DNA of 64,000 nt, from the NCBI GenBank assembly GCA_040752415.1, contig JBFMGU010000006.1, positions 7,779 to 71,778 of the forward strand, in the 5' to 3' direction. The position numbers and the translations under genes were made by a program. Every line of letters starts with the position of its first letter. Position 1 is the stretch's first letter. This DNA is from Myxococcota bacterium (GTDB lineage: Bacteria > Myxococcota > JACRCW01). This document shows positions 1,984 to 63,513 of the stretch, one piece after another. Below the pieces are notes generated by a model. It was given only the letters and a program-made list of their open reading frames with translations, ran no database searches and was not told where the DNA came from.

Positions 1984-2070
1984 TCAAGGACTCCTTGCCG
2001 GGTGCGCTCTGCAACTGGCGGGCCTTCAAGCACATCACCGCCGCGACGCACAATCGTTTTCCGAGGGCCA

Positions 2071-3618: not shown

Positions 3619-3710
3619 GCCGCGCGCCTTCTACGCGATGTGCCACGCCGTGACGAGGGCGAGCTCACGACCGATGCCCCGCCTCGCCAAGCGACACGGC
3701 CCCTGGCCTC

Positions 3711-6700
3711 GTGCCACATACGTCACCCATGTCTTCCTGGGTCATCACCGCGCCGCAGCGCTGGCCGCTCTGCACGCTGGCGTATCTCAAGGGCAAGGGC
3801 CTGGAGTACGCGCGCGAACGGGCGGGCCGGATGCCACGCACCTACCAGCAGGCGCCGCGGCTGGACGGTGACCACCTCCTTGCCACCCTCACCTCCTTCC
3901 CGCCCGACTCCGATCCTCGTCGTGACTCCCGCAACCCGGAGCGCGTGGCCATCCTGGTGGTGCGCGGTCCCCGTCAGACCCAGCTGCGCGTGGAATGCAC
4001 GTGCGGCGTGTACCGGTGTCTGCACGCGCTGGTGCTGCTGACGGACCTGGCGGTGTGGCCGGACTTCACCCGTGCGCTGACGACGGGACGGGACACCTCC
4101 GCGCTGCTCTCCGGCCTCGACGCTCGACGGGTGGGCCAGCTCCACTCCGCGGCCCTGGAGCAGCGGCTGGGCATCTGGATGAAGGTCCCCGCGGCGCGGG
4201 CGCCCCAGCCGGTGCGCTTCGTGGTCTCGCCGCAGTGGCTCACCGCGGAATGGAACGGCTCCCCGCGCGCGGATTCCACGCCGGCACTGGCGCTGGACGT
4301 CTACGTGGGAACCCGCACGCGGCCGCTTTCCGTCGACGAGCTGGAGACCGCCGCGCTCACCACCGCCGACCGCGAGCTGCTGGAGCTGTGCGTGCTCCAC
4401 CGCTTTGGCGGCGGAGGGTTCGCGGCGCGTGGCTCGGTGGCGTCGCAGGTGCTGGCACAGCTGGAGGGCCGCGCGGTGATGCAACCGGCCAACGTGCGAG
4501 AGGACGAGCGCCCCCTGGCATTCGAGCCGTGGCGTCTGCTTCCGCGCGTGGTGCGTCGCACCGTGCCCCGCGGCTGGCTCCCGGGTGAGGCTCCCGACGA
4601 GGACGACGCCACGGTGGACGCCCTGGTGGCGGAGTGGGCCACCGCCGACGGCACGGTGGTCTCACCCATGACGCGCACCATGTTCTACCCGGGGAGGTCT
4701 CCGCGCGTGCTCTTGTGGGACCGCCTGGTGGTGGCGCACGTGGCGCCCGGCGTCGACGCGCTGCTCGCGCTGCACCTGCAGCGTCAGCCGGTGGTGCGCG
4801 TGGATGATTCCACCACCGCCGCGGCGGCCTGGAACACGCTGCGGAACGCCTGGCGGGGACGCGGGGTGGCCCTGCCCGCGCCGGAGCACGTGGAGGTGGC
4901 CACGGAATCCGCGCTGGCGTTGTGGCTCGCCGTCGACGGGAGCACGCTGCAGGTGGAGGCGCGCCTGGTGGCGGAATACGCCTTTGGCGCCTTTGACCTC
5001 CACCCCGACGAGGCCACCCGGGATCCCCGACGGGACGCCGCGCGCGAGGACGCCGCCGTTGCCGCGGTCCAGGAGGCGGGGCTCAGCTACGACGAGGGCC
5101 AACGCCTCTGGACCGCGGAGGACGACGCGGCCGCGCGCTGGTGGCTGCGCGGTGTCGGCTCCCTGCCCGACGTGGAGGTGCGGGTGGCGGAGTCCCTACT
5201 GGGCATCCAGGTGCGCGGCGCGCTCAAACCGCACCTCGGCGTGGGCGTGATGCAGGGCATGCTGGAGGCGTCGCTGGTGCTGGACGTGAACGGCCTGCGC
5301 GCGGACATGGAGGACGTGCGGCAGGCGCTCCGACGGAAGCGGCGCTTCGTCCGGCTCTCCGACGGAACGCTGGCGGAGATGCAGGACCACCTGCGCGCGG
5401 TGCTGGAGGAGAACCCGGAGCTGGTGACCGGGGGCGGCGTGGCGCGCATCCCGCTGCACCAGGGCGCGCGCGTGCACGCGTGGCTCACCGAGCTGGAAGG
5501 CACCACCAGCAACGAGCCCGCGCAAGCCTGGCGTGACGACGTCACCCGCGGTCCATGGGCGGAAGCGGAGCTGCCCGAGGGCCTGACGGTGGACCTGCGT
5601 CCCTACCAGCGCGAGGGCGTGGCGTGGCTGCAATGGCTCACCCGCGTGGGCGCCGGCGGAATCCTCGCCGACGACATGGGGCTGGGGAAGACGGTGCAGA
5701 CGTTGTGCTGGCTGGCCGGGCTGCATCGGGAGAGGGACGCGGGCACGTCGCTGGTGATCTGTCCCACGTCGGTGGCGCACCACTGGGCGGCGGAAGCGGC
5801 GCGCATGATCCCCTCGCTGCGCGTGGAGGTGTGGCACGGCGCGGAGCGCAAACGGCAACGCCCGAAGGAGCTGGACCTGCTGGTGACGACGTACGGCGTG
5901 GTCCGCCAGGACGCCGACTGGCTCTCCCAGCAGACGTGGAAGGCGCTGGTGCTGGACGAGGCGCAGCAGATCAAGAACGCCGACGCCGTCACCTCCCGCG
6001 TGGTGCGCCAGCTCCCGGCCAGCGTGCGCGTGGCGCTGACCGGAACACCGCTGGAGAACCGGCTGCTGGACCTCTGGACGCTGGTGGACCTGGTGAACCC
6101 GGGGCTGCTGGGCCCGCGCAAGCACTTCGAGGCATTCGTGGAGCCGCTGGTGATGCGTGAGCCCGACGGGTGGCAGTCCCGCCGCATCCGCACGCGCGTG
6201 GCGCCCTACATCCTGCGTCGCACCAAGGCCCAGGTGCTGCGCGACCTCCCCGAGAAGATCGAGCAGGACCGGTCCGTGCTGCCCACCATGCAACAGCGGC
6301 GCGTCTATGATGCCGTGGCCGCCATGGCCCGTGCCGACGTGGCCCGCATGCTGCGCAACAAGGGTGTGGAGCAGGCGCGCATCACGGTGCTGGCCGCGCT
6401 GACCCGCCTGCGCCAGGTGGCGTGCGACCCGCGCCTCGTCGACCCGGAGCGTTCCGCGGAGGAGAGCGCCAAGCGCATGGAGTTCCTGGCGCTGGTGGAG
6501 AGCCTGGTGGCGGCGGGACGACGCGTGTTGGTGTTCAGCAGTTTCGTGGAGCTGCTGACGTTGTGGCGCCGGGACCTGCATGAGCTGGGAATCCGCCACG
6601 AGTACCTGGACGGCGCCACGCGCGACCGCGCGGAGGTGGTGCGTCGTTTCCAGGAGGGCGACGCGCCGCTGATGGTGGTGAGCCTGAAGGCGGGCGGTAC

Positions 6701-6994: not shown

Positions 6995-8605
6995 TCAGCG
7001 ACGTCGACGGAGCAGCACCAACAACCCGGCCACCAACAAACCGATGCGCACGTCGGGCGAATCCGGCGTGGCCGCGCAGCGGCAGCCACGCTCACCGGTC
7101 TCGCCATCACTCGCCGCCCCACCGCTGGACATCGTCACCCCGCCTGGCGCACCGCCGCTGGACGAGCTCGCCGCCGCGCTGCTGGAAGAGGATGACGTTG
7201 ACGCAGCGGTGGAGGACGACGAGGACGACGTCAACGACGACGAGGACGACGAGGACGAGGCCGCCGCCGCGCTGCTCGAGGTGCCACCGGTGGTCGCGCC
7301 GGATGCGCTCGTCGAGCTGGCGCTGCCGGTCGCCGCACTGGAGCTCACCGTCGCGCTGGATGTCGTCGTCGCGGAGCTGGACGTCGAGGTGCCGCTGCCG
7401 GACGAGGCGCCGCCGGACGACACACTCGCGCTGGAAGAAGCCGTGGAGCTGGACGTCACTTCCTGCACCGACGACGACACGCCCCCGGTCGACGTGCTCG
7501 ACGCGACCGAACCGCTCGACGCCGCCGAGCTCGAGCTCTCCGCCCCGCCGGTCGAGCTTGCAGCCGACGTGGAGGATGACGCCGAGGAGCTGCTGGAGCT
7601 GGTCGCGGGCAACACGCGAAGCGTCACCGACACGAGCACCGACCCGCTCACCACGTCATCCGAGTGGACGAACATCCCGCCCGAATACACGTCCGCGACC
7701 AGGCCCGTCGGGTCCACGCGCAGCATGAGGGTGGCGGTTTCATCGCTGAGCAGCGTTCCGGATGCGGTCAGCTCGTCCAGCCACGCGTCCTCCGGCCACA
7801 CCGAGGTGGTCCAAGCCACGTCGGTGTGTTGGGCCGGCGTCACCAGCAGCTCCACCGGCACTTCCACCGCCGGCGAACCTTCCTGCACTGAAAGCTCGAC
7901 ATCGGTGGGTTCGACGACGAGCTGGGCGTTGGGTGTCAGCACGTCCGTGCTGGGTGTGTGGGTGGCCGACACGAAGCTGAACACCACCTGCACCGGGAAT
8001 TGCGGAACGGTGAAGGAAAGGAGATCGCCACCCGGCACGCCACCCTGGCCATAGTTTTCGTCCCAGGAGAGGTTGATCGCGGCCTTCCAGGACCACGTCC
8101 CGGGCGGCAGCTGGGAATCCAACGTCATCGTGTAGACGCCGTCTCCGCCGACGTCCTGGAGCCAGCTCCGCATGCAGTCGGGCGTCCAGTCACCCGGGCA
8201 GCCGATCTGGCTCTGGTAGTCGCCCGGCGCGGTGACGATGCGATGCGAAACGTTGTTGGGTGCCCAGTGGGTCCGCTCGCTGAAGTAGAACCGCACGTTC
8301 TGGGCGGAAGCCAGCTCCAGCGTGTACGACTCTCCATTGGGAACGCCGCCCACACCGTAGTTCTCTTCCCAGCTGTTGTTGATCGCGATCTTGTATTGCC
8401 AGGTGCCGGCAGGGACGAAAGCGCTGAACCGCCACACGTCGTCGAAGCCACGGGTGAGCTGCGTGTTGCCGCACGTGGGGTCCCAGTCCGCGGGGCAGCC
8501 GAGCGCCGATTGGAGGGAACCGGCCAGCGTCACGGAGGCGGGCTGGGCGCTGGCGCCGACGGGACTCAGCAGGAGAACGGCAATGAAGACATGGCTGCGG
8601 CGCAT
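6995..8605 (-). CDS. secreted protein with two tandem carbohydrate-binding-like (pullulanase-associated-domain-like) modules and a MYXO-CTERM-type sorting tail
   Basis: Signal peptide MRRSHVFIAVLLLSPVGASA. The table ORF starts 11 codons earlier at 8638. Two ~100-aa repeats carry G.LQSALGCP.DW.P.C ... W.YK.AIN.SW.ENYG. A ~190-aa Ser/Thr/Ala low-complexity linker follows. The C-terminus GCRCAATPDSP..IGLLVAGLLVLLRRRR has the Cys, hydrophobic helix and Arg cluster typical of the Myxococcales MYXO-CTERM signal. Confidence 0.8.
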   Translation of the reverse strand: MRRSHVFIAVLLLSPVGASAQPASVTLAGSLQSALGCPADWDPTCGNTQLTRGFDDVWRFSAFVPAGTWQYKIAINNSWEENYGVGGVPNGESYTLELASAQNVRFYFSERTHWAPNNVSHRIVTAPGDYQSQIGCPGDWTPDCMRSWLQDVGGDGVYTMTLDSQLPPGTWSWKAAINLSWDENYGQGGVPGGDLLSFTVPQFPVQVVFSFVSATHTPSTDVLTPNAQLVVEPTDVELSVQEGSPAVEVPVELLVTPAQHTDVAWTTSVWPEDAWLDELTASGTLLSDETATLMLRVDPTGLVADVYSGGMFVHSDDVVSGSVLVSVTLRVLPATSSSSSSASSSTSAASSTGGAESSSSAASSGSVASSTSTGGVSSSVQEVTSSSTASSSASVSSGGASSGSGTSTSSSATTTSSATVSSSAATGSASSTSASGATTGGTSSSAAAASSSSSSSSLTSSSSSSTAASTSSSSSSAAASSSSGGAPGGVTMSSGGAASDGETGERGCRCAATPDSPDVRIGLLVAGLLVLLRRRR

Positions 8606-41072: not shown

Positions 41073-42020
41073 CTACCACGCGCGCACGCCCGGAATGGGA
41101 ATCCGCAGAGGCAGGGTCCTCTGGTCGAAGAGTCTGCGCGTCTCGTCGCTGACCCACTCCTGCAATGAGCCCTCGAACATCCGCGTCTCGAACCCGAGGT
41201 AACGCGAGACGAAGTACAACCAGCTCGCATCCACGCCCGTGGTGGCGTACGGCACCATCACGTTCCTCCACTCCGCACCGGCGTCGCGGAACAGCTGTCG
41301 CAGCTCCTGCGGGCTCTTGAGATACGGCAGGTCCAGCGAGGTCACCGTGTCCTGCCAGAACACGTTCACCGCGCCGGGAATGTGGCCCGCGCGCGCCATG
41401 CCCTCGGACAGCACCGCACCCAGGTACTCGTCGGGGGAGCGCGCGTCGATGAAGCTGATGGCGGGCTCGAAGAGGCGGTCGGAGACCCAGGAGGCGTCGA
41501 CCATGCGCTCCAACTGGGGCATCACCGTCAGGTTGCCGTAGATACGCTCGGGCACGTCGGGAATGGCGGGGAGGCCCACGTCACGCCAGCCCGCCAGGCC
41601 GCCGTTGAGGATGGCCGTGCGCGCACCGTGGCCCATGAGGTCCAGCAGGAAGAACGCACGCGCCGCGGCATGGGGTGGTCCGTAAAGGATGATGCGCGCG
41701 CTGTCGTCGAGGCCCACGTAGCGGAACGCGGTCTCCAGGTCCTCGAACGCGGGGAAGCGTGGCAGCTGTCCCTCCACGGGGCGCATCAACGCCTCGAGAG
41801 AGAGGAAGCGCGCGCCGGGGATGTGCTCCTCGCGGTAGCTCGAGATGTCCTCGCCCACCTCGATGATCTTGACCGCGGGGTTCTCCAGGTTGTCGCGCAG
41901 CCAGTCCGCGCCGACGAGCAGGTCACCCTGCACCGGGGGCGGACGCGCCTGCATGACGTCGCCACACGCGGCGGACAGGAAGAACAGACAACCAGCGGAA
42001 AGTGCCTTGAGCCGTATCAT
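41073..42020 (-). CDS. two-domain rhodanese-like lipoprotein lacking the catalytic cysteine
   Basis: A lipobox (LFFLSAAC) is followed by tandem rhodanese folds (EEHIPGARFL ... AGHIPGAVNVFW). The loop where CxxGxR is expected reads VPYATTGVDAS, and the mature protein has no Cys. Its last 16 codons lie in the 49-bp repeat. Confidence 0.7.
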   Translation of the reverse strand: MIRLKALSAGCLFFLSAACGDVMQARPPPVQGDLLVGADWLRDNLENPAVKIIEVGEDISSYREEHIPGARFLSLEALMRPVEGQLPRFPAFEDLETAFRYVGLDDSARIILYGPPHAAARAFFLLDLMGHGARTAILNGGLAGWRDVGLPAIPDVPERIYGNLTVMPQLERMVDASWVSDRLFEPAISFIDARSPDEYLGAVLSEGMARAGHIPGAVNVFWQDTVTSLDLPYLKSPQELRQLFRDAGAEWRNVMVPYATTGVDASWLYFVSRYLGFETRMFEGSLQEWVSDETRRLFDQRTLPLRIPIPGVRAW

Positions 42021-42157
42021 GATGCCCTCGCCATCACGGGCGGCGGACCAGGTACGGTGATGAGCACACGGCAGCCGCCGCGCCCTGAGTGGGGATGTAG
42101 CCCCCGCTCCCCCGGCGGCAACAGCAGCGTGTCCGTGTCAGCGACGGAGCAGCGAGC

Positions 42158-44155
42158 TCACATGGCCTCGGGCGCGCGCACGCCCAGCAGCGCCAGGCCG
42201 CGCGCCAGCGTGTTGCGCACCGCGTCCATGAGGTGCAGGCGCGCGGCGCGCACGGGGTCGTTGGGATCCTCCAGCAGCACGCGCTTGCTGCGGTCCTGGT
42301 TGCCGCTGGTGAGGTAGCTGGCGGTGGCCTGCGCAATGTCCATGATGGCGCGCGTCACCAACGAGGGCTCGAACGACTCACACGCCTCCGCCACCACGTC
42401 GGGGAAACTGGCCAGCGCCAGGATCACCGCGCGCTCCTCCTCCAGCTTCAGCAGCGCCGTGTCCGCCGTGGCCGGAACGCCGCCACCCTTCTTGATGATG
42501 CTGCAGGCGCGCGCGTGGCTGAACTGGATGTACGGCCCGGAGAAGCCGTCAAAGTTGATGGCCTCCTCCAGCTTGAAGGTGTAGTCGCTCATGCGGAGGT
42601 TGCGCAGGTCACCAAACACCACCGCGCCCACGCCAATGGCCTCCACCGTCTCGTCGAGGTGGGAGCGGTCGATCTTCTCGGAGGCCTCGCAGATCTCGCG
42701 CGCCTTCTGCACCGCCTCGTCCAGCACCTCGTCCAGGAACACCACGTTGCCGCGGCGCGTGCTCATGCCGTGCACCCGGCCAAAGGCAATGTGCGAGATG
42801 CGCTCCGCCCAGGGGAAGCCCATGGCGCCCAGCGTGCGCTTGAGCTGGTCAAAGTGCAGCGACTGGTCCGCCGCCACGACGTACAGCGAGCGGTCGAAGT
42901 TGAAACGCTGGTGGCGGTCCATGGCCGCGGCGATGTCGCGCGTGACGTAGAGCGTGGTGCCGTCGCGGGTCTTGAGGATGACCGGCGGCTCGCCCTCCTT
43001 GTACGGGAGGTCCACCACGGTGGCGCCTTCGCTGATGCGGGTGCCGGGCTTCTCCGCCACGCGCTTGACGGTGTCCTCCAGCACGTGGGTGTAGAAGCTC
43101 TCACCTTCCAGCGCGTGGAACTGGATGCCCATGCGCTTGTACACGCGCTCGAACTCCGCCACCGACGTCTCGCGGTACTCCTTCCACTCGGCCAGCGCCT
43201 CCTTCTCACCCTCTTCGAGACGCTTGAGGAACAGGCGCGCCTCGCGGTCGCGCGCTTCCGCCTCGGGCAGCTCCGCTTCCGCCTTCTTCTTCTCGGCGTC
43301 CAGCTCGGCGTACCAGGCCTCCAGGCCCGTCAGCGGGTCCCCGCTCTCCATTCCCCGACGGGCGCGCAGCTTCTTCTCCAGGCCCTTCACCTTCCCTTCG
43401 GCACTCTTCTTGGCCTTGGGGTCGGTGGCCTTCTCCGCTTCCGCGCGCGCGGCGGTCAGCTCCGCCACCTGCTTGCGGACCTCCTCGGGCGCGGCAATGG
43501 CGGCCTTGCGACCTTCCACGTCGGCGTCGCGGTTGGCCTTCACGTACACCTCAACCAGGTGCTTGGCATCCGCGCGCCGCTTGGGGTCTCCGTAGCGACG
43601 GAAACCGGTGGCGAGCAGACCAAACTGCTTGCCCCAGTCGCCCAGGTAGTTGATGCCCACCACCTTCCATCCCTGCGCCGCGTGCAGGCGACCAATGGCC
43701 GCGCCAATCACCGTCGAGCGGATGTGGTGGAAGGCCAGCGGCTTGGCGATGTTGGGCGAGGAGAAATCGATCACCACCGTGCGACCACGTCCCGCCTCGG
43801 AGGTGCCGTAGTCGCCCTTGCGCGCCTCGGTGAGGACGGCGCCGGCCAGCGCGGCGGGAGCAATGTGCACGTTGACGTAGGGGCCCACCGCCTCCACGCG
43901 CGCCCAGCGTGCATCCTTGCCCGCCGCGTCGGCAACGCGCTTGGCCAGCTCGGGGGGCTGCAGCTTCAGCCGACGGGCGAGGTCGAACGCGGGCAACGCG
44001 AGGTCACCGCGGCCCGCCTCGGGGATGCGGATCTGCTTGAGGAGCGCCTCCAGCGCGGAGGCCTTGTCTGCGTCGGGAATGCCGGCCACGTCCACGGCGG
44101 TGCTGGCCAGGGCGTGACGGAAGGATGCCAGGGGAGATGCCATGATGCGGGGCAA
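42158..44155 (-). CDS. argS: arginine--tRNA ligase with a ~70-aa Lys/Glu/Ala-rich insertion
   Basis: It has a HIGH-like PLAFHHIRS block, a KMSK-like HGMSTRRGNV block and the C-terminal anticodon-binding DALK domain. An alternative ATG is at 44143. The insertion is ...AELTAARAEAEKATDPKAKKSAEGKVKGLEKKLRARR.... Confidence 0.92.
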   Translation of the reverse strand: MPRIMASPLASFRHALASTAVDVAGIPDADKASALEALLKQIRIPEAGRGDLALPAFDLARRLKLQPPELAKRVADAAGKDARWARVEAVGPYVNVHIAPAALAGAVLTEARKGDYGTSEAGRGRTVVIDFSSPNIAKPLAFHHIRSTVIGAAIGRLHAAQGWKVVGINYLGDWGKQFGLLATGFRRYGDPKRRADAKHLVEVYVKANRDADVEGRKAAIAAPEEVRKQVAELTAARAEAEKATDPKAKKSAEGKVKGLEKKLRARRGMESGDPLTGLEAWYAELDAEKKKAEAELPEAEARDREARLFLKRLEEGEKEALAEWKEYRETSVAEFERVYKRMGIQFHALEGESFYTHVLEDTVKRVAEKPGTRISEGATVVDLPYKEGEPPVILKTRDGTTLYVTRDIAAAMDRHQRFNFDRSLYVVAADQSLHFDQLKRTLGAMGFPWAERISHIAFGRVHGMSTRRGNVVFLDEVLDEAVQKAREICEASEKIDRSHLDETVEAIGVGAVVFGDLRNLRMSDYTFKLEEAINFDGFSGPYIQFSHARACSIIKKGGGVPATADTALLKLEEERAVILALASFPDVVAEACESFEPSLVTRAIMDIAQATASYLTSGNQDRSKRVLLEDPNDPVRAARLHLMDAVRNTLARGLALLGVRAPEAM

Positions 44156-44218
44156 GTAGAGGACAGCGGACGGTTTGGCAACGGGCTGGCGACGTCCCGG
44201 GGCCCGCTCGGCCGTGCG

Positions 44219-44764
44219 TCACCTCCGCGCCGCGGCAAGCGTGGCCTCCACCCACGACGTGACGTCGGCCAGCGCGTCCAACACCAGCATTCCCGTCGTG
44301 TTCCACGGCACCGACGTTGTTCCAGGCAGGTAGACCACCAGCGGCTTGGCGTAACGCCGTGCCAGCGCCACCTCGCTCGCGGTGCCCAGCCCGCCGGGCA
44401 GCGCCACGATGACGTCGGAGCTGAGCACGTTGATGTGGTTGCGGCTCATGGGTTCCATGCCCTGCGCGCCGCTGAGCGGGAGATGCGTGTGCAGCGCCAG
44501 CTCGACGTGCGGATGGGGATACCCCTCCCGCGGGTGGTGGCCATGCGCATCCACCTCGCCGGGAATGACGCCCAGACACAGGCCAGCGCGCGGCGTGACG
44601 GAACAGAAACCCCGGCTCACCGACGTCATCACGCCACAGCCACCGCCGGTCAGCAGGTGGTATCCCCGCGTGGCAATCCAGCGTCCCAGCGGCTCGGCCC
44701 AACTCGGGTGCTCGTCGGTGCCGGAGCCCATCACGCCCACCACGGGACGACGTCCGCTGCTCAT
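44219..44764 (-). CDS. LOG/TIGR00725-family Rossmann protein (lysine-decarboxylase-like, putative nucleotide phosphoribohydrolase)
   Basis: Starting at ATG 44764 gives MSSGRRPVVGVMGSG..., then LLTGGGCGVMTSVSRG and ALPGGLGTASE, the LOG signature blocks. ~181 aa. It lies 55 bp downstream of the H-NOX gene on the same strand. Confidence 0.7.
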   Translation of the reverse strand: MSSGRRPVVGVMGSGTDEHPSWAEPLGRWIATRGYHLLTGGGCGVMTSVSRGFCSVTPRAGLCLGVIPGEVDAHGHHPREGYPHPHVELALHTHLPLSGAQGMEPMSRNHINVLSSDVIVALPGGLGTASEVALARRYAKPLVVYLPGTTSVPWNTTGMLVLDALADVTSWVEATLAAARR

Positions 44765-44819
44765 GCGCGTGCTCCTCGTCGTGTGCGCATCCTGCTGCCG
44801 GACCCAACGGCGTTGCAAT

Positions 44820-45404
44820 TCACGCCGACGTGCCGCGCGTGCTCCTGGCCCATTGCGGCGCCTGATCACCCACGCGCACCACGATGACGCAGTTGGGCGC
44901 GCCCCCGTGCATGCACTGCCGCTCCACCATGCCCACCGGCTCGTCGTAGTGGCGCGCCAGCGCGGTGATGATGCCCTTGGCCACGCCGCACATCTTCCGC
45001 GCGGAGCCGTAGGTGATGGTGACCTCGTCGGTGCCGCTGCGGTTGCACACCAGCTCCGGCGGCGCCGCCCCCTTGTTCTCGATCTGCACCACGCGATGGA
45101 TGGCCCCCTGCGTGTTCAGCAGGACGTCCAATGTCCGCCACTCCGGCTTGATGAGCCGCTGGTACTTCTTGACGAGGTTGGGACCGATGAACTCACCGAA
45201 CGCCTCCAGCAGCACCGGCACCGGCTTCCCCGTCAGGCGTGACGCCGTGGTCACCAGCGCCAACGCATCCGCGTCGGGATACCGCTCCATGGGCAGGAAC
45301 ATCCTCCCGGACATGCCGGCGGCCTTCAGCAGCTCATCCCATGCTTTCTCGCCCAGGTTCGCGCCCACAAAGGCGCGCAGCTCGGCGAAGATGACGCCAT
45401 GCAT
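44820..45404 (-). CDS. H-NOX (heme nitric oxide/oxygen-binding) domain protein, stand-alone
   Basis: Starting at ATG 45404 gives MHGVIFAELRAFVGANLGEKAWDELLKAAG.... The candidate proximal His is in TQGAIHRVVQ, and the Y-x-S-x-R propionate-binding motif is in ITYGSARKM. ~194 aa, typical H-NOX length. Confidence 0.7.
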   Translation of the reverse strand: MHGVIFAELRAFVGANLGEKAWDELLKAAGMSGRMFLPMERYPDADALALVTTASRLTGKPVPVLLEAFGEFIGPNLVKKYQRLIKPEWRTLDVLLNTQGAIHRVVQIENKGAAPPELVCNRSGTDEVTITYGSARKMCGVAKGIITALARHYDEPVGMVERQCMHGGAPNCVIVVRVGDQAPQWARSTRGTSA

Positions 45405-45482
45405 TGTGTGTCCCTTCAGTTCACGTCGACGTGCGGGAGCGCCAGTCAAACCCGGCACAGCGCGTCCCAACCAGCGTTGGCG

Positions 45483-46547
45483 TCATCGACCGGTGGTGCC
45501 GCGCAGCCGCCGCTCCAGGGGATGTTCCACCACGACGTGGAGCAGCCACGCCGCCACCACCGACGCGCCCACCATGGCCAGCGCCACACCCAGCTGGTGC
45601 GGAAGCGGCAACACGCCGAGCGGTCCCCACCAAGCATGGAACACCTGCGCCAGGGGCAGGATCACCAGCTGCACGTGCACCAGGTAGAACGCGTAGGACC
45701 ACATCCCCAGTTTCACCATCACCCTCGACGTGCGGGGCGCCTCCGCGTCCAGGTTCTCCTGCGCCACCGCGGCAATGAGCAGGGCGTACGGCACCAAGGT
45801 CACCGACGCGTAGCGGAACGACTCCGGCACCACGCCCGCCACCAGGTACGCCAACACCGCCAGCACCAGCGCCACCGGCGCGCGCACCGGCGCCCGCGTT
45901 CCTTGCAGCATCTCCACCGCCACCAGCGCGCCGAGGAGGAACTCCGGGAGCCGGCCGAGGGGAAGGATGTAGACCAGCCACTGGCTCGTCGAGAAACCCT
46001 CCACGGGATGACACGCCCAGGCCAGCGCCACGGTGATAACGACCAGGAACACCATCAACGCGCGGCGCGGTGTCGTCGGGAGCGTGGTGAGGCGCGGCAG
46101 GATGAACGGGAACACCGCGTAGAAGAAGGCTTCACAGCTCAGGGACCAGGAGACGTTGTTGACGGCGTAGTAGACGCTGGGCTGCGGCACCCAGGCCTGC
46201 ACCAGCACCAACGACGGATACACAATCCACGGCAACGCCCCCACGTGGTAGACCAACCGCCCCGCCGCGATGAGCCAGGTGACGAGGTGCGCGGGATACA
46301 CCCGGGCGAAGCGGCGCCGCCAGAAACGCCGCGGCGTGTCGTCGGACGGGTGCGACCAGGCGAGCACGAAGCCGCTGAGGATGAAGAAGAACGAGACGCC
46401 GGTCAGGCCCTGCCGCAGGAACGGCGCGAATTCACCGCTGAGGATGCCGTAGGCCTGCAGGTGGAACCCCGCTACCAGCAACGCGGCCCAGAAGCGCAGA
46501 CCGGTCAGCGACTCCAGCCGTCGTCGTCGCTGCGGCGCGGGCTCCAT
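45483..46547 (-). CDS. acyltransferase family 3 (OafA/OpgC-like) integral membrane protein
   Basis: Starting at ATG 46547 gives MEPAPQRRRRLESLTGLRFWAALLVAGFH.... ~10 TM helices. FFFILSGFVL is characteristic of Acyl_transf_3. Confidence 0.8.
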   Translation of the reverse strand: MEPAPQRRRRLESLTGLRFWAALLVAGFHLQAYGILSGEFAPFLRQGLTGVSFFFILSGFVLAWSHPSDDTPRRFWRRRFARVYPAHLVTWLIAAGRLVYHVGALPWIVYPSLVLVQAWVPQPSVYYAVNNVSWSLSCEAFFYAVFPFILPRLTTLPTTPRRALMVFLVVITVALAWACHPVEGFSTSQWLVYILPLGRLPEFLLGALVAVEMLQGTRAPVRAPVALVLAVLAYLVAGVVPESFRYASVTLVPYALLIAAVAQENLDAEAPRTSRVMVKLGMWSYAFYLVHVQLVILPLAQVFHAWWGPLGVLPLPHQLGVALAMVGASVVAAWLLHVVVEHPLERRLRGTTGR

Positions 46548-46626
46548 GGAAACTGTGTACCGACGGGCGGAAGGCGGCGTCAAACCGCGCTTGACCCCGC
46601 GACACCCGTGCACGATGGGTCCACGC

Positions 46627-47502
46627 ATGGAGAAGCGGCCTCTGGGTGCAACGGGGATGCAGGTCTCGGTGCTGGGCCTGGGCGCGGGTCACGTGGGCGG
46701 CGCGGAGCTGTCCGAGGACCACGTGGGCTGGCTGCTCAACGCCGCGTTGGACCTGGGCGTCAACCTCGTCGACACCGCGCGCGGCTACGGGCTCTCGGAA
46801 GAGCGCATCGGGCGTCACCTGGCGTGGCGACGACGTGATTTCGTGCTGGTGAGCAAGTGCGGCTACGGCGTGGAGGGGGTGGCGGACTGGACGCCGGAGT
46901 GCATCCGCGTCGGCGTGGACCAGGCGCTGCGTCGCATGCGCACCGACCACATCGACGTCATGATGCTGCACTCCTGCCCGCGCGCCACGTTGGAGCAACC
47001 GGGGCTGCTGGACGCGCTGGACGACGCGGTGCGCGCCGGCAAGGTCCGCCACGCGGGGTACTCCGGCGAGAACGAGGACCTGGCCTACGCGATCTTGACG
47101 GGGTGTTTCACGGTGTTCGAGACGTCGGTGAATGTGTTTGACCAGCGTGGCCTGTGGGAGCTGGTTCCGCGCATGGGCGCCGCGGGGGTCATTGCGAAGC
47201 GGCCGGCGGGGAATGCGCCGTGGCGTTTCGTCGAGCGGCCCCACGGGCATTACGGCGAGGTGTACTGGGAGCGCATGGTGCAGTTGGGGCTGCGGCCTGG
47301 TCCGCTGTCCTGGACGGAATACGCGTTGCGGTTTGCCGCGCATGCGCCGGGAGTGCACTGCGCCATCGTCGGGACGTCCAGCGTGGAGCACCTGCGGGAG
47401 AACGTGCGCGCGGTGGAGGCGGGGCCGTTGTCGTCGGAGGTGTTTGCCGAGGCGCGCGCTGCGTTTGAGCGGGTGGGGAGAGATTGGCGGGGGCAGGTGT
47501 GA
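46627..47502 (+). CDS. aldo/keto reductase
   Basis: ATG 46627 gives MEKRPLGATGMQVSVLGLGAGH.... DTARGYG and IDVMMLH are present. It is divergent from the acyltransferase-3 gene, with an 80-bp gap. Confidence 0.9.
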   Translation: MEKRPLGATGMQVSVLGLGAGHVGGAELSEDHVGWLLNAALDLGVNLVDTARGYGLSEERIGRHLAWRRRDFVLVSKCGYGVEGVADWTPECIRVGVDQALRRMRTDHIDVMMLHSCPRATLEQPGLLDALDDAVRAGKVRHAGYSGENEDLAYAILTGCFTVFETSVNVFDQRGLWELVPRMGAAGVIAKRPAGNAPWRFVERPHGHYGEVYWERMVQLGLRPGPLSWTEYALRFAAHAPGVHCAIVGTSSVEHLRENVRAVEAGPLSSEVFAEARAAFERVGRDWRGQV

Positions 47503-48287: not shown

Positions 48288-50216
48288 TCACTCCGGGTCG
48301 CACATCCCGTCGCAGGTGGGCTCCACCACGCCATCCGGCTTGAGGAACCGCTTCTTCATCTCGATGGCCGCCGCGAGACGTCGCACCGCCTCGTGCGTCT
48401 CATTCCCTTCCGCGGCCTCGTTGGTGGGCGGGGGCGTCTTGCTCACCGGCACCCCGAAGTACACGTACGCCGACGGCGCCGTCTCCACCGTCTCAAAACC
48501 CCACGGCGTGCGTGCGCTCTGGCTGAGCAGCGGCAACCCCGCCGTCCCGTACACCATGTCGGAGGCCAGGTTGGGGACCTGCGCGTCGTCGGTGCCAATC
48601 TGCGAGAGCACGTAACGCACCGTCGAGCCCGGCAGCGGGTCCTTCACCACGTGCGGCGCATAGCTCACCGGGTCCGCGTAGTCCCACAGGCTCTGGATCA
48701 TCGCCAGGATCACCTGTCGCTCCACGGGCACGCGGTAGCTGTCGTCGAACACCAGCGACATGGCCGGCCAGTTGGCGCTGCGCTGGATCATCATGGACCA
48801 GTTGCCCGCGCCCACCCCCACCACGCCACGCTCGATGTCCGGCGTGAGCGCCAGGAACGTGAGCCCCATGATGCCGCCCAGGCTGTTGCCGTCGTAGTAG
48901 GTGGTTCCCTCGTCGATGAGCCGGCTCCCGTCGGCGCGCTGGAGCTCGGGCGCGTCGCCCAGGATGCCGCGCACGGTGCGCGTGAGCGCAATGGTGTCAA
49001 TCACCGCCTGCTGCAGCCGGGAGGCGGTGCGGTGGAACAGGCTCATGTCCCGCAGCGCGTTGGTGACAATGCCCACGTCCTGCTCGGTGAGGCCGGTCCA
49101 GTTGGTGGCCGCCACCACATAGCCCAGCTCCTCGGCGAGACGACGCACGTGACCGCTCTGGATCTCGTCATAGCCGGAGCCCAGCAGCCCGTGCCCGTAG
49201 ATGAGCAGCGGCACCGGCCCCGGGGCGTTCATGGCCTTGGGCGGCACCACCACGGTGAACTCACGGTCCCATTCCCCCGTCGCCACCGGGGTGCCGGACG
49301 CGTCGCGCGCCAGCGTGGCGGTGAAGCCGCCCTCGTCGGTGAGGAAGAGCGGGGAGCGGAAGGTCCCGTCCACCAGGCGCGCCACGTCCGGGTACGTGTT
49401 CTCCCGGGAGCGTGAGATGGCATACGCAATGCCGCGGTTTCCCAGCGTCGTCAGCGCCTGCTCACGCATGCTGAGCAGCGCGCCGGTGATGGCTTCCTGG
49501 GAGGCGGTGTGCACCTCGAACGCGAGCAGCAGGTCGTCCCGGGTGAGCCCCAGCTGCGTCGCCACCTCCATGGCCTCCACCAGCGACGCCCGACGGGACT
49601 CCAGCCGCGCGCTGGTGGTGGGCAGACCGTCCAGCACCGCCTGGAACCCCGCGCTGCGCGGCACCGCGCTCCCGTCCAGCGCACGCACCCGGTGCGTCAC
49701 CACGACGAGATAACGCGCATTGTTCCGCAGCCGCCGCATGGGCCGGATGATGAGCGTGCGCTCGCCGGGCTCCTCCACGGTCATGTCCAGCTCGGAGAAA
49801 TGCGGCACGCGCTCCCGGCGCTCCACGTCGATCAACACGGTCCCGCTCTCGGCGGTGAGGCTGCGCGCAATGTCATCCTGCGGCGGCAAGGCGGTGTTGG
49901 AGATGGCCACCGGGAAATGCACCATGTACGGCGCCGCGGGCGAGAACCCGTCCTGGTCCAGGGAGGTCACATCCACGGGAATTCCCTCACTGCTCAGCGG
50001 CGCGGCGCCCTGGGGGATGCGCACGCGTCGACCGGTGACGGTGCTGGCGTCGACTTCCAGGTACATGCTGGAGGGGAACGGGTTGAGGCACTCCGGGCCG
50101 TAGCCCAGCGGATTGCACGGCTCCGCCGCCACGTTGACCGCCGGTGGCGTCCCCGACGTGGAAGAGCAGGAAACCAGGAGCAACAGGACCCACAACGGTT
50201 GACGACCTTGACGCAT
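48288..50216 (-). CDS. secreted alpha/beta-hydrolase-fold lipoprotein (lipase/esterase-like)
   Basis: Starting at ATG 50216 gives MRQGRQPLWVLLLLVSCSS, a lipobox. GxSxG is YDGNSLGG, and LLIYGHGLLGS is present. ~640 aa. Confidence 0.75.
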   Translation of the reverse strand: MRQGRQPLWVLLLLVSCSSTSGTPPAVNVAAEPCNPLGYGPECLNPFPSSMYLEVDASTVTGRRVRIPQGAAPLSSEGIPVDVTSLDQDGFSPAAPYMVHFPVAISNTALPPQDDIARSLTAESGTVLIDVERRERVPHFSELDMTVEEPGERTLIIRPMRRLRNNARYLVVVTHRVRALDGSAVPRSAGFQAVLDGLPTTSARLESRRASLVEAMEVATQLGLTRDDLLLAFEVHTASQEAITGALLSMREQALTTLGNRGIAYAISRSRENTYPDVARLVDGTFRSPLFLTDEGGFTATLARDASGTPVATGEWDREFTVVVPPKAMNAPGPVPLLIYGHGLLGSGYDEIQSGHVRRLAEELGYVVAATNWTGLTEQDVGIVTNALRDMSLFHRTASRLQQAVIDTIALTRTVRGILGDAPELQRADGSRLIDEGTTYYDGNSLGGIMGLTFLALTPDIERGVVGVGAGNWSMMIQRSANWPAMSLVFDDSYRVPVERQVILAMIQSLWDYADPVSYAPHVVKDPLPGSTVRYVLSQIGTDDAQVPNLASDMVYGTAGLPLLSQSARTPWGFETVETAPSAYVYFGVPVSKTPPPTNEAAEGNETHEAVRRLAAAIEMKKRFLKPDGVVEPTCDGMCDPE

Positions 50217-50316
50217 GACCGCGACCTCCGACGGGTGCGCAGTCTGCCGCCCGATGATGCATTTGGCCAGTCCGTCGCCATCCGACAAACCGCGGCTGTG
50301 CTAGAGAGATGGGTGA

Positions 50317-51725
50317 TGCGCATCCGGTGGGTGATGGTGACGTTGCTGGGCGTGGCGGCGTGTCTCCCGGTGGTTCCCGAGTCCCCGTGCGAGACCAGCG
50401 ACGATTGCGACGTGGAGCACCATTGCGTGGATGGGAGCTGCGTGCCCCGGGACCAGGGTTCCTTCTCCACGTCGTCGTCAGCGGTCGCGAGCACTTCCTC
50501 CAGCGCCAGCTCCTCGAGCAGCGCTTCCTCTTCCGCGTCCTCCGCCGCCGTCAGCTCCTCGAGCGCGAGCGGAACCGCCAGCACATCCGACGTCACCTCC
50601 TCCAGCAGCGCCACGTCCACGTCGGGTGCCACCTCCTCCACCGGCGGAAGCAGCACGTCGCAGACCTCCTCCACCTCGTCGGGCAGCTCCACCACGTCGG
50701 CGGGAACGTCCTCCCCCAACGCCACCAGCAGCACCACCTCCACCAGCTCGTCCGCCACCAGCGCCGCGTCCACGTCGAGCAACACCACCTCGACGTCATC
50801 GACGGGGAGCACCACGTCCTCCAGCGGCTACCACGCCCCGCCCTTCTTCACCGCCTACAATGACCTGGCGTGGTTCTCCGGCCAGACCACCACCAGGATC
50901 AGCACGCTCACGCGCGGCCAATCCGGGAATCTCGTCGACGCCAACACGGGCGTGGCGCTGGGCGCTTCCCTGTCCATCAGCGCGGGCGGCGCGGGCCCGT
51001 ACGACACCTATGGCGCCATGCCCGCCCCGGGGACGGAGGCGCACAACTTCTTCGCGAGCCACGTGGATGGGGCCGGGCTCATCAGCTTTGACCCCTCCGA
51101 CCTGGTGCTGACCTTCAGCTCGCTCCCCACGACGATGCGCTACGAGCTGGTCTTCCTGTGCAACCGCGACAACGCCACCTACACCGACCGGCTCACCCGC
51201 GTGACGCTTTCCGGGATGACGACACTCATCAACGACAGCTCACCGGGCACGTCCTTCCAGCCGGGCACGGCCTCCACGGTCTTCTCTTGCGGTGCCAACG
51301 CGGAGGGACGGGTGGCGCGCTTCGTGGGTGTGGACCCCGGCTCCGACGGCGAGCTGGTCCTCACCATCTCCGACGGAGGCAGCCCCACGCCGCCCGCGTA
51401 CTACGCCAACGCCGTCATGATCCGCGCCTTCCCGCCCGGCACGCTCTACAACGCGCGCCCCGTGGTCGACGCCGGCGCGGACTTCACCACCTCCATGGGC
51501 GGGCTCACCTTCCTGGCCGGTTCCGCCAGCGACGACGGGTATCCCGCCGCGTTCACCGCGCAATGGACGCCGGTCACCGGTCCGGGCACGGTCTTCTTTG
51601 GCGATCCCACGCAGCTCCAACCCGAGGTGAGCTTCTCCGCGGAGGGCACCTACGTGCTGCGGTTGGATGTCTCCGACGGAGAGCTGGTGGGCACCGACAC
51701 CGTCACCATCTCCGTGACGCCCTGA
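50317..51725 (+). CDS. lipoprotein with an N-terminal Cys-rich module (CETSDDCDVEHHCVDGSCVP), a long Ser/Thr linker and a C-terminal beta-rich domain
   Basis: ATG 50317 gives MRIRWVMVTLLGVAAC, a lipobox. The architecture is shared with 10760..13519 and 57469..59235. Confidence 0.7.
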
Positions 51726-61236: not shown

Positions 61237-63513
61237 TCAATTCACCGCGCCCGCCGGCAGACGGTCCAGCACACGCCTCAGCGCCTCCCGCAGCTCCTCC
61301 GGGCGGAAGGGTTTGCGCAGGAAGGCCGCGTGCCCCCGGCGCCCCACCTCGTCGGTGATGTGGTCCTCGGTGTAGCCGCTCATCAGGATCACCCGCGCCT
61401 TGGGGTCCAGCTCCAGCAAGCCGCGCAACACCTCCAGCCCACCCATGCCGGGCATGGTGAGGTCCACCACCGCGGCGCTGATGCGCCCCCGTTCACGCGC
61501 GTACAGCTCCAGCGCCTCCGCGCCGTGACGCGCCTGCAGCACCGTGAGCCCGGAGCGTTGCAGCACGCTGGCCACCAGGGCGCGCACGCCTTCCTCGTCG
61601 TCGACCACCAGGATGGTGCCTTGCGCGGTGAAGGGCGGCGGCGTGGGACGACGCGCGGGCTCGGACACCCCCTCCGCCACCGGCAGCAGCAGGCGGAAGA
61701 CCGAGCCGGCGCCGGGAGCGCTCTCCACGCGCAGGGCGCCCCGGTGCGCGCGCACAATGCCCAGCACCGCCGCCAGGCCCAGGCCGCGCCCGGCGAACTT
61801 GGTGCTGAAGAACGGCTCGAAGATGCGCGCGCGCGTGGCCGCGTCCATCCCGCTGCCGGTGTCCTGCACCTCCACGTAGACGCACCGCCCCGCCGCGGTG
61901 GTGATGGGTGGCTGGCACTGCGCCAGGTAACCGTGATCCACGTCCATGACGCCGGTGCGCACCGTGACCTCGCCGGGCTGCTGGGCCAGCGCCTCCACCG
62001 CGTTGATCACCAGGCTCAGGATGGCCTGGCGCACCTGCGCGGGGTCGGCCTGCACCGGAGGCAGCGTCACACCGTTCACGTGGTGCAGCGTGGCGTTGCC
62101 GCTCAGCGAGGGGCGCACCACCTTGGCCGCGTCCTCCACCAGCGTGCCCACGTCGACACGCCGCATCTCCATCCGGTTCTTCCCGGCGTAGGACAGAAGC
62201 TGCTGGCACAGCTCCGCGGCGCGCACGCTGGCGCTCTCAATGCCCTCCAGCCATTCCAGCGCAGGGTTGTCGGGCTGCAGCCCGGTGGCGGCCAGCGCCG
62301 CGTGGCCCAGGATGACGGAGAGCAGGTTGTTGAAGTCATGGGCAATGCCGCCGGCCAGCACACCCAGGCTGTCCAGCTTCTGCGCGCTGATGAGGGCCTC
62401 CTGACGACGCTGGCGGTCGGTGATGTCGCGGATCACCACCAGCATGCAGCGCTGCCCCTCCAGGGTCACGCCCTTGATGGAGGCCTCCACCGGCACGCGG
62501 TGGCCGCGCTTGTGGATGATGCGCGTCTCGTGGTGCTCACTGACCGGTCCTCCCGCCTCCCGTCGACGACGTCGCTCCAGCGCCTCCGGCACGTCCTCCG
62601 GCGCCACCACCTGCAGGTACGTGGGCCAGGCGCGCATCTCCTCCTGCGTGTAGCCGTTGATCTGGGAGAGGGCCTCGTTGGCCAGCAGGATGCGCTGGCT
62701 CGCCAGACCCACCACGCACACGCCCAGGCCCAGGTCGCTCTGCGCGCGCAGGATGGCCTCGTACAGCGCGGTCTGCCGCTGCAGCTCCTCCTGCACGCGC
62801 TTCTGCTCGCCAATGTCGCGCATGGCCACCAGCCGCGCGGGCATCCCGTCAAACCGGCAGGAACGGGAGCAGAGCTCCAGCATCACGCGGGAACCGTCGG
62901 AGCGGATGCCCACCACCTCGTAGCGGCCCTCCAGGTTGTCCTGGAACCGACGGTTCACCTCCGGCAGGCTCTCCGGCGCCACCAGCTCACCCACCGCGCG
63001 CCCCACCAGCTGCTCCCGCGGCGCGCGGTAGATGCGCTCCATGGCCGGGTTGCACGCCACCACCCGCCCGCGCTGGGCCACCACCACGCCGTCAAACGCC
63101 GACTCCACCAGCCCCAGGTAGCGCTCCCGGCTCTCCTGCAGCTCCTCCAGCTCGGCGCGCTGCGCGGTGACGTCGCACAGCATCGAGACCACACGCTCCC
63201 CGCGGACGCGCAGCTCTTCGCGCAGCCACATCGTCCCGCCCGCCGCACGCTGGAACCGGTACTCCAGCACGTGGCTGCCACCCGCCTGCAGCGCGCGGTG
63301 ATACGCGGCGCTGGTGGCCGCGCGGTCGTCCGCGTGGACGTGGTTCAACCAGAAGCCCTGCTCCTGCAACCACCGGTCCGCGACATGACCGGTCAGCCGT
63401 TCCGTCGGCGCGCTAACATGGGTGAAGGTCCGGTCCGGCCCGTGGGCCTCCGTGACCGCCACCTCCAACTCCTCCAGCAGGTGCTCGCCTGGCCTGCCGT
63501 GCCGCGTCTCCAT
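61237..63513 (-). CDS. hybrid sensor histidine kinase/response regulator with multiple PAS domains
   Basis: Three PAS-like segments are followed by the HisKA H-box (GIAHDFNNLL), the HATPase_c G-boxes (DTGSGMD, GRGLGLA) and a C-terminal receiver domain (ILVVDDEEGVR ... DLTMPGMGG ... KPF). Confidence 0.9.
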   Translation of the reverse strand: METRHGRPGEHLLEELEVAVTEAHGPDRTFTHVSAPTERLTGHVADRWLQEQGFWLNHVHADDRAATSAAYHRALQAGGSHVLEYRFQRAAGGTMWLREELRVRGERVVSMLCDVTAQRAELEELQESRERYLGLVESAFDGVVVAQRGRVVACNPAMERIYRAPREQLVGRAVGELVAPESLPEVNRRFQDNLEGRYEVVGIRSDGSRVMLELCSRSCRFDGMPARLVAMRDIGEQKRVQEELQRQTALYEAILRAQSDLGLGVCVVGLASQRILLANEALSQINGYTQEEMRAWPTYLQVVAPEDVPEALERRRRREAGGPVSEHHETRIIHKRGHRVPVEASIKGVTLEGQRCMLVVIRDITDRQRRQEALISAQKLDSLGVLAGGIAHDFNNLLSVILGHAALAATGLQPDNPALEWLEGIESASVRAAELCQQLLSYAGKNRMEMRRVDVGTLVEDAAKVVRPSLSGNATLHHVNGVTLPPVQADPAQVRQAILSLVINAVEALAQQPGEVTVRTGVMDVDHGYLAQCQPPITTAAGRCVYVEVQDTGSGMDAATRARIFEPFFSTKFAGRGLGLAAVLGIVRAHRGALRVESAPGAGSVFRLLLPVAEGVSEPARRPTPPPFTAQGTILVVDDEEGVRALVASVLQRSGLTVLQARHGAEALELYARERGRISAAVVDLTMPGMGGLEVLRGLLELDPKARVILMSGYTEDHITDEVGRRGHAAFLRKPFRPEELREALRRVLDRLPAGAVN

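Follow-up and report, generated by a model that had tools for sequence, protein, structure and literature searches.

The closest described relatives of the gas sensor discussed here are the H-NOX proteins of Shewanella and Vibrio (HnoX; structures 2kii, 4u99 and 4u9b). The operons in which these proteins are found reportedly also encode a histidine kinase (HK) or GGDEF/EAL proteins, the canonical operon partners of H-NOX (PMC4436077). The gene that follows the sensor at our locus is related to the molybdenum cofactor (Moco) carriers, such as MCP1 of Chlamydomonas (2iz5), to the LOG (Lonely Guy) phosphoribohydrolases (PF03641/TIGR00730) and to the SLOG sensor domains of defence systems (ThsA of Thoeris, for example), which are reported to bind nucleotide-derived signals (PMC11204291). 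A search of the literature found no report tying SLOG to H-NOX. In the window, by which we mean the whole 64,000-nucleotide stretch of DNA that was analysed, an H-NOX gene and a SLOG gene lie side by side, and the H-NOX gene, in contrast to those of Shewanella and Vibrio, has no HK or GGDEF/EAL gene next to it.

The locus lies on the minus strand of a contig of about 70% GC, 89 kb long and listed in the public databases under a Myxococcota MAG, and consists of four co-directional genes in succession (Table 1), followed after argS by a rhodanese gene. The flanking genes encode Acyl_transf_3, aldo/keto reductase (AKR), YchJ, rhodanese and ArsR proteins, and the genes scanned elsewhere within about 15 kb have metabolic or housekeeping roles. 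A Pfam scan of the neighbours found no kinase, cyclase/phosphodiesterase or MCP gene adjoining H-NOX, in agreement with the preliminary description, which was equally right in placing argS immediately after the second gene (same strand, Pfam domains in agreement) and in its measurement of 55 bp between the two co-directional genes. The spacing is exact because the N-termini of homologues settle both start codons: the H-NOX start is backed by an M1-H2-G3 N-terminus that is near-invariant in 40 homologues, and the start of the SLOG gene agrees likewise with its homologues. Each start codon is preceded by a ribosome-binding-like site (AAGGGA, Shine-Dalgarno-like, 7 nt upstream for H-NOX; GAGGAG 8 nt upstream for SLOG). 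Among the 27 selected window ORFs that were scanned with Pfam, the nearest two-component gene encodes a PAS-HK-REC hybrid some 16 kb away.

Table 1. Features of the locus, with positions counted from the first nucleotide of the window.
Feature	Position	Strand	Basis and remarks
Acyltransferase_3 family membrane protein gene	45483..46628	-	Pfam Acyl_transf_3, 94.9 bits; upstream co-directional neighbour
Stand-alone H-NOX gene, 194 aa	44820..45404	-	Pfam HNOB (PF07700), 114.5 bits (cutoff 25.5); ATG at 45404, stop codon 44822-44820
Codon of His103 (in TQGAIHRVVQ)	45098-45096	-	
Codons of Y132-G-S134-A-R136 (YGSAR)	45011-44997	-	Y-x-S-x-R motif
H-NOX/SLOG spacer, 55 bp	44765..44819	-	Read from the sequence; includes GAGGAG, the SLOG ribosome-binding site
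SLOG cluster 4 Rossmann protein gene (LOG-superfamily, Moco-carrier-like), 181 aa	44219..44764	-	PF18306, 104.8 bits (cutoff 26.3); ATG at 44764, stop codon 44221-44219
GGGCGVM block	44647-44627	-	
PGGLGTASE block, residues 123-131	44398-44372	-	
argS (arginine--tRNA ligase)	42158..44143	-	Pfam tRNA-synt_1d, DALR_1, Arg_tRNA_synt_N; start ATG 44143 or TTG 44155
PAS-HK-REC hybrid gene	61237-63513		Nearest two-component gene among the 27 ORFs scanned

Judged by its sequence, the first gene encodes a genuine H-NOX, in which all the haem-binding residues are present. The preliminary description had named it as such from its length of about 190 aa, the His in TQGAIHRVVQ and the YGSAR motif; all of these are there, and the proposed comparison with the PF07700 profile gave a match well above the cutoff that covers residues 2-159 and profile positions 1-161 of 163. 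Its closest matches among solved structures are 4u9b, 2kii and 4u99, all Shewanella H-NOX (E ~3e-18). The window protein has the same length and domain as these and aligns with them end to end (residues 1-179, E 3e-18), at low sequence identity to the Shewanella protein. They have in common the proximal histidine (His103 in both), the Y-x-S-x-R motif and a C-terminal Cys/His cluster. In an alignment of 40 homologues, H103, P115, Y132, S134, R136, C139 and C172 are invariant. The set takes in the proximal haem ligand (H103), the proline that distorts the haem (P115), the Y-x-S-x-R clamp on the haem propionates and members of the C-terminal Cys cluster. The protein homologue search returned 99 matches from this clade, the best of which is 57% identical to the window protein.

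In the H-NOX of Thermoanaerobacter (Tt), Tyr140 of the distal pocket hydrogen-bonds O2, and proteins that do not have the distal Tyr belong to the NO-selective class (the published distal-tyrosine rule). We aligned the window protein with a Tt H-NOX sequence that we take to be correct (its length of 188 aa agrees with 1u4h). In this alignment, His103 corresponds to His102, P115 to P115 and the YGSAR motif to YVSKR, and Val141 occupies the position of the distal Tyr140. The window protein thus has no distal Tyr, as in NO-selective H-NOX, and falls outside the O2-binding (Tt-type) subclass. Because Val replaces the distal-pocket Tyr, we predict that the protein is NO-selective.

The Cys-rich C-terminus opens a different reading of the protein. 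Residues 134-177 give a weak match to V4R (28 bits, below the cutoff of 31), and this region holds the cluster Cys139/Cys164/Cys172, in which Cys164 is nearly invariant among the 40 homologues and the other two are fully so. All three align with Cys residues of Shewanella H-NOX, and in the Shewanella and Vibrio proteins these residues form a Zn site that serves haem-independent redox sensing. The window protein might on these grounds be mainly a thiol/zinc redox sensor, or else a V4R-like binder of a hydrophobic ligand, rather than a haem NO sensor. We consider this unlikely: H103, P115 and the Y-x-S-x-R motif are invariant as well, so haem binding is under selection, and the HNOB score is far above the V4R score. 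Haem and redox sensing are, moreover, not mutually exclusive.

The second gene was described as a member of the LOG/TIGR00725 family, of about 180 aa and with GGG.GVM and PGGLGTASE blocks. Both blocks and the length were found, and its place in the LOG superfamily stands. The family assignment does not: the profile searches that had been proposed gave no PF03641 match at E<=0.01 and a TIGR00725 score of 59.1 bits against a cutoff of 106.9, TIGR00730 was likewise below its cutoff (31.8 bits against 96.35), and the family is PF18306, SLOG cluster 4 (SLOG4). The homologue search yielded 2282 matches, with PF18306 present in all of the best 120; the nearest are about 65% identical over a partial alignment and 59-61% identical at near-full coverage. 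Conservation within the clade is tight, at a mean column identity of 53%, and the invariant residues include T93-H94-L95, S107-R108-N109-H110, G124, G127, T128, S130 and E131.

Among solved structures, the SLOG product is closest to 6y01 (profile E 4.7e-24) and 2iz5 (1.2e-19). The former carries the PDB molecule name 'p450 cytochrome, putative', and we take it to be the Moco-binding protein of Rippkaea orientalis. For the window protein itself, NCBI gives the name 'molybdenum cofactor carrier protein'. With the Moco carriers (2iz5, 6y01), it shares the Rossmann core and the GGxxGVM and GxGTxxEVALA blocks. It differs from them in two respects: about 16-17 conserved residues (GYPNPWVE..THLPLSG..G) are inserted in the SLOG4 clade and have no counterpart in the Moco carrier, and the clade has the full PGGxGTxxE motif, which Moco carriers have been reported not to possess (PMC5379747). 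The scanned window ORFs include neither a molybdoenzyme gene nor one for Moco synthesis, and Rfam matches, whether to the Moco riboswitch or to another RNA element, were absent from the whole window.

The likeness to the LOG phosphoribohydrolases consists of the common superfamily fold and the PGGxGTxxE motif, a loop that binds the nucleotide phosphate in LOG proteins and is PGGLGTASE in the window protein. The invariant R108 and E131 of the SLOG4 clade are 23 residues apart, a spacing equal to that of the catalytic pair R155/E178 of CgLOGII (PMC5379747), in a register that the alignment does not cover. The SLOG profile can be aligned with LOG structures in the N-terminal block and at the PGG motif and not in the Arg region, and the substrate pockets are not comparable by sequence. 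The SLOG domains of the ThsA type are in the same superfamily and in a different family from the window protein. Membership of a defence system was rejected for the SLOG protein: PADLOC models match neither it nor the H-NOX, and neither a SIR2, TIR or other effector fusion nor nearby defence genes were found.

The arrangement of the genes is compatible with their being transcribed together. The acyltransferase gene ends 78 bp before the H-NOX start, and the gap between the SLOG stop and argS is 75 bp or 63 bp, depending on which argS start is used; none of the 78-, 55- and 63-75-bp spacers contains a terminator-like hairpin, and a scan confined to sigma-70 consensus sites, a weak method at a GC content of 70%, gave no sigma-70-like promoter in 42000-47000. 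H-NOX and SLOG4 may well be co-transcribed on this evidence from the sequence, and two co-directional genes that lie 55 bp apart, with no terminator predicted between them, fit such co-transcription. We entertain tentatively a reading in which a single transcription unit covers H-NOX and SLOG4, perhaps together with argS and the acyltransferase gene, and the products do not interact biochemically. The co-directional order, the short, terminator-free spacers and the lack of a sigma-70-like promoter in the scan speak for it, and the weakness of the promoter scan speaks against it, as does the situation in related genomes, where argS has its own upstream region and is divergent from mrp, which suggests that argS normally has its own promoter. 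Co-transcription alone is in any case no evidence of functional coupling.

Whether the pairing means anything depends on its recurrence, and conservation of the adjacency among relatives had been put forward as the check. A pattern scan of 185,579 species-representative genomes, based on the alignment of the H-NOX clade, gave 80 H-NOX loci, from Gemmatimonadota, Acidobacteriota, Myxococcota/Polyangiaceae, Planctomycetota, Nitrospirota, Calditrichota and some archaea. An exact-protein look-up added three loci, and removal of duplicates left 82 independent loci, seven of which come from Myxococcota/Polyangiaceae MAGs. Their flanks have medians of 6.7 kb upstream and 6.0 kb downstream; at least 1 kb is available downstream in 68 of the 82 and upstream in 75. 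We searched these loci (hmmsearch) with an SLOG4 profile HMM built from 120 homologues, on which the window's own gene scores 264 bits. No SLOG4 gene was found within about ±8 kb in any of the 82. The sole match to the SLOG profile near an H-NOX gene is a weak one of 27.7 bits at locus L010, which we rejected as an H-NOX/SLOG4 pair; it is a classical LOG gene (PF03641), 3.4 kb away and on the opposite strand. We attribute its presence to chance, since about one such match would be expected by chance.

The reciprocal comparison gave the same answer. Five exact-protein look-ups and two metagenome loci, the latter obtained by a scan with a single SLOG protein, provided six distinct SLOG4 neighbourhoods, which is a small sample. 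They contain VWA/CarboxypepD_reg genes, photolyase/TGT genes, a P450 gene or acetyltransferase/YjbQ genes (L093, repeated as L100), and the remaining two are L094 and L095; all six contexts differ from one another, and the SLOG4 protein is without a conserved gene partner among them. The H-NOX profile found no H-NOX gene in any of the six (run on L088-L095), and the precomputed Pfam labels, which are what is available for L100, show no HNOB gene there. None of the six has argS adjoining the SLOG4 homologue.

The argS gene gives a third vantage point. Its product is 65-69% identical to Myxococcota ArgRS, and the four closest relatives on long contigs, all from Myxococcota, are 65-68% identical. 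In all four, a divergent mrp/apbC-type gene lies upstream of argS, joined in three of them by hisS, and neither a SLOG nor an H-NOX gene was found near argS in any (the H-NOX profile was also run on these loci). Since these relatives have neither gene, we conclude that the arrangement in the window is a lineage-specific rearrangement. We also considered a conserved SLOG4-argS pair into which H-NOX was later inserted and rejected it: the argS relatives have mrp/apbC in that place, and SLOG4 homologues do not occur near argS.

Gene fusions, too, are absent from both sides. All 99 H-NOX matches carry HNOB/V4R domains and nothing else, and the best 120 of the 2282 SLOG4 matches have PF18306 alone, apart from one that also has PF03641. 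The adjacency of H-NOX and SLOG4 in the window is a singleton, seen in no other genome examined (0/82 H-NOX loci, 0/6 SLOG4 contexts, 0/4 argS loci), and for this reason the pairing has the look of an accidental neighbourhood rather than of a new signalling system. Sampling of the lineage is thin (nearest H-NOX 57%, SLOG4 about 65% over a partial alignment or 59-61% near full length, ArgRS 69% identical), and a recent lineage-specific functional pairing therefore keeps a small probability.

These counts bear directly on the central proposal of the preliminary description, that the sensor is coupled to a LOG-like enzyme in a signalling output new to H-NOX. Put in its most specific form, NO-liganded H-NOX would bind and regulate the SLOG4 protein, itself either a Moco carrier or a nucleotide phosphoribohydrolase of the LOG kind, in a module particular to this lineage. 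Several features are compatible with it. The two genes are co-directional and 55 bp apart with no predicted terminator, the canonical partner is not adjacent to H-NOX, and the SLOG4 clade keeps an invariant PGGxGTxxE-like loop together with an R108-E131 spacing equal to that of the LOG Arg/Glu pair (PMC5379747). The neighbourhoods of the H-NOX clade are also diverse, and one is a STAS/SpoIIE operon, so non-canonical H-NOX outputs may exist. However, the adjacency is a singleton on all three sides of the comparison and no fusions accompany it, and SLOG4 homologues far outnumber the H-NOX clade (2282 matches against 99). Every gene has some neighbour, and a single juxtaposition therefore has no statistical weight. 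We find such a module very improbable, and the coupling that had been proposed did not survive the comparison. That H-NOX has been recruited to control SLOG4, with NO gating a LOG-like nucleotide hydrolase or the release of a cofactor such as Moco, is something we would hardly expect; if true, H-NOX would here have an output that involves neither kinases nor c-di-GMP enzymes.

What the clade has beside it instead was determined by clustering, all against all, every six-frame ORF within ±4 kb of the 82 H-NOX genes. A single class of neighbour recurs widely, that of two-component or c-di-GMP proteins, found within 4 kb at 21 of the 82 loci. The number falls to 11 when the gene has to lie within 500 bp on either strand and to seven when a two-component/GGDEF gene has to be directly adjacent and co-directional. 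Where adjacent signalling genes are present, they have HisKA/HATPase_c, GGDEF or REC domains by Pfam, which also identifies them as histidine kinases (L016, L068), REC-GAF-GGDEF proteins (L011, L017), large GGDEF proteins (L019, L051, L067) and a REC-LytTR regulator (L055). These are proteins of the kinds known as operon partners of H-NOX, yet most members of the clade, the window gene included, are orphan H-NOX. One clade member (P0010) sits in a STAS/SpoIIE partner-switching operon; we dismissed partner switching as a general theme of the clade, as this is a single case among 82 loci.

Taken together, we suggest that H-NOX and SLOG4 are probably two independent, ordinary stand-alone genes, brought next to each other upstream of argS by the rearrangement in this lineage, and that the orphan, NO-selective H-NOX acts in trans; 'orphan' here means that the partner is encoded elsewhere in the genome. 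By analogy with the family, the protein would bind NO at a ferrous haem ligated by His103, and NO binding would bring about a conformational change through this proximal histidine. H-NOX may then modulate a histidine kinase or diguanylate cyclase encoded elsewhere by protein-protein contact, and some redox sensitivity may come in addition from the conserved Cys cluster. The SLOG4 protein would, independently of H-NOX, bind or process a phosphorylated small ligand at its PGGxGTxxE loop, perhaps a nucleotide, perhaps Moco or another pterin. The 27 window ORFs scanned did not reveal a kinase or cyclase that could be assigned to the H-NOX as its partner.

Both genes are new members of known and already annotated families. 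If their coupling were real, it would constitute a new class of H-NOX output, in which the sensor directly controls an enzyme that handles nucleotides or cofactors. The evidence points instead to two annotated families in a one-off juxtaposition, and to that extent the finding changes little. What the comparison does bring out concerns the sensor: this H-NOX clade is widespread in soil and sediment phyla and occurs in some archaeal genomes and MAGs, and as its sensor is usually not encoded beside its partner, prediction of the H-NOX partner from the gene neighbourhood fails for most of its members.

Most members of the clade to which the window's H-NOX protein belongs are 'orphans', in that a signalling partner is not encoded next door. 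A co-directional HK, REC or GGDEF gene is adjacent at 7 of the 82 independent loci of the clade, and a gene of one of these types lies within 500 bp of H-NOX, on either strand, at 11/82. As so few loci have an adjacent partner, prediction of the partner from gene neighbourhood fails for most members. Archaeal genomes and MAGs also carry members of the clade, with 36-50% identity to the window protein, and the haem-binding residues are kept in the two archaeal proteins that fall within the clade alignment (P0040 and P0096).

The clade of the neighbouring SLOG cluster 4 (SLOG4) protein shows unusually high conservation, and its invariant residues include THL, SRNH.N and G..GT.SE. The clade has an insert, GYPNPWVE..THLPLSG, that Moco carrier proteins lack, and the window protein's version of it is rich in His (DAHGHHPREGYPHPHVELALHTH). 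More than 2000 homologues belong to the family, and we know of no characterised member. Two related genomes have SLOG4 and a YjbQ (PF01894) gene overlapping by 4 bp, with a molybdopterin oxidoreductase gene located about 4 kb downstream of the pair. This arrangement is the sole hint that SLOG4 may have a molybdenum context.

In all four closest ArgRS relatives (L096-L099), a divergent mrp/apbC-type ATPase gene is found upstream of argS, and in three of the four hisS is upstream as well. In the window, an acyltransferase, H-NOX and SLOG4 replace the ATPase, a difference from the relatives that indicates local rearrangement. We note that residues about 200-290 of the window ArgRS form a Lys/Glu-rich, coiled-coil-like insertion, which divides the catalytic-domain match into two stretches. 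ArgRS of the relatives is just as long (about 656-660 aa), which makes this insertion a feature of the lineage. Elsewhere in the window, two long candidate ORFs on opposite strands offer alternative frames where they overlap.

Coordinates of the features discussed (L, genomic locus; P, individual H-NOX homologue protein)
Feature	Location	Coordinates	Strand	Remark
H-NOX gene	L008-L087	about 8001-8540		in most loci
Archaeal H-NOX	P0096			Halorussus gelatinilyticus genome
Archaeal H-NOX	P0040			Halobacteriales MAG
Archaeal H-NOX	L070	8001-8528		Heimdallarchaeota MAG
Archaeal H-NOX	L060	1906-2337		Nanoarchaeia MAG
SLOG4 gene	window	44219-44764	-
SLOG4 and YjbQ genes	L093	5001-5968
SLOG4 and YjbQ genes	L100	5001-5995
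argS	window	42158-44143	-
argS and upstream genes	window	42158-46628
argS	L096-L099	5001-6975
666-aa candidate ORF	window	48288-50288	-	no Pfam match
Long candidate ORF	window	49509-51725	+	extended Ser/Thr-rich low-complexity tract; overlaps 666-aa ORF
Partner-switching operon	L001 (also L002, L003)	2009-5549		Deltaproteobacteria MAG
Convergent hisS	L071, L073, L076, L080, L083, L086, L087			15-42 bp downstream of H-NOX
Small conserved ORF	L006	5542-5808		co-directional with H-NOX
Small conserved ORF	L013	8543-8827		co-directional with H-NOX
Small conserved ORF	L019	8547-8816		co-directional with H-NOX
Small conserved ORF	L037	8516-8818		co-directional with H-NOX

H-NOX has other neighbours in some members of the clade. 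Directly 3′ of the gene, four loci from different MAGs share a short conserved ORF, about 90-100 aa long, that has no Pfam match. In one Planctomycetia clade, H-NOX is convergent with hisS (histidyl-tRNA synthetase), a curious neighbour given argS in the window; the arrangement is probably plain synteny of related genomes. A singleton among the 82 loci is a STAS-STAS-HATPase_c_2-SpoIIE-HATPase_c_2 partner-switching operon that ends with H-NOX, which starts 10 bp past the previous gene. We suggest that this operon could represent a non-canonical H-NOX output.
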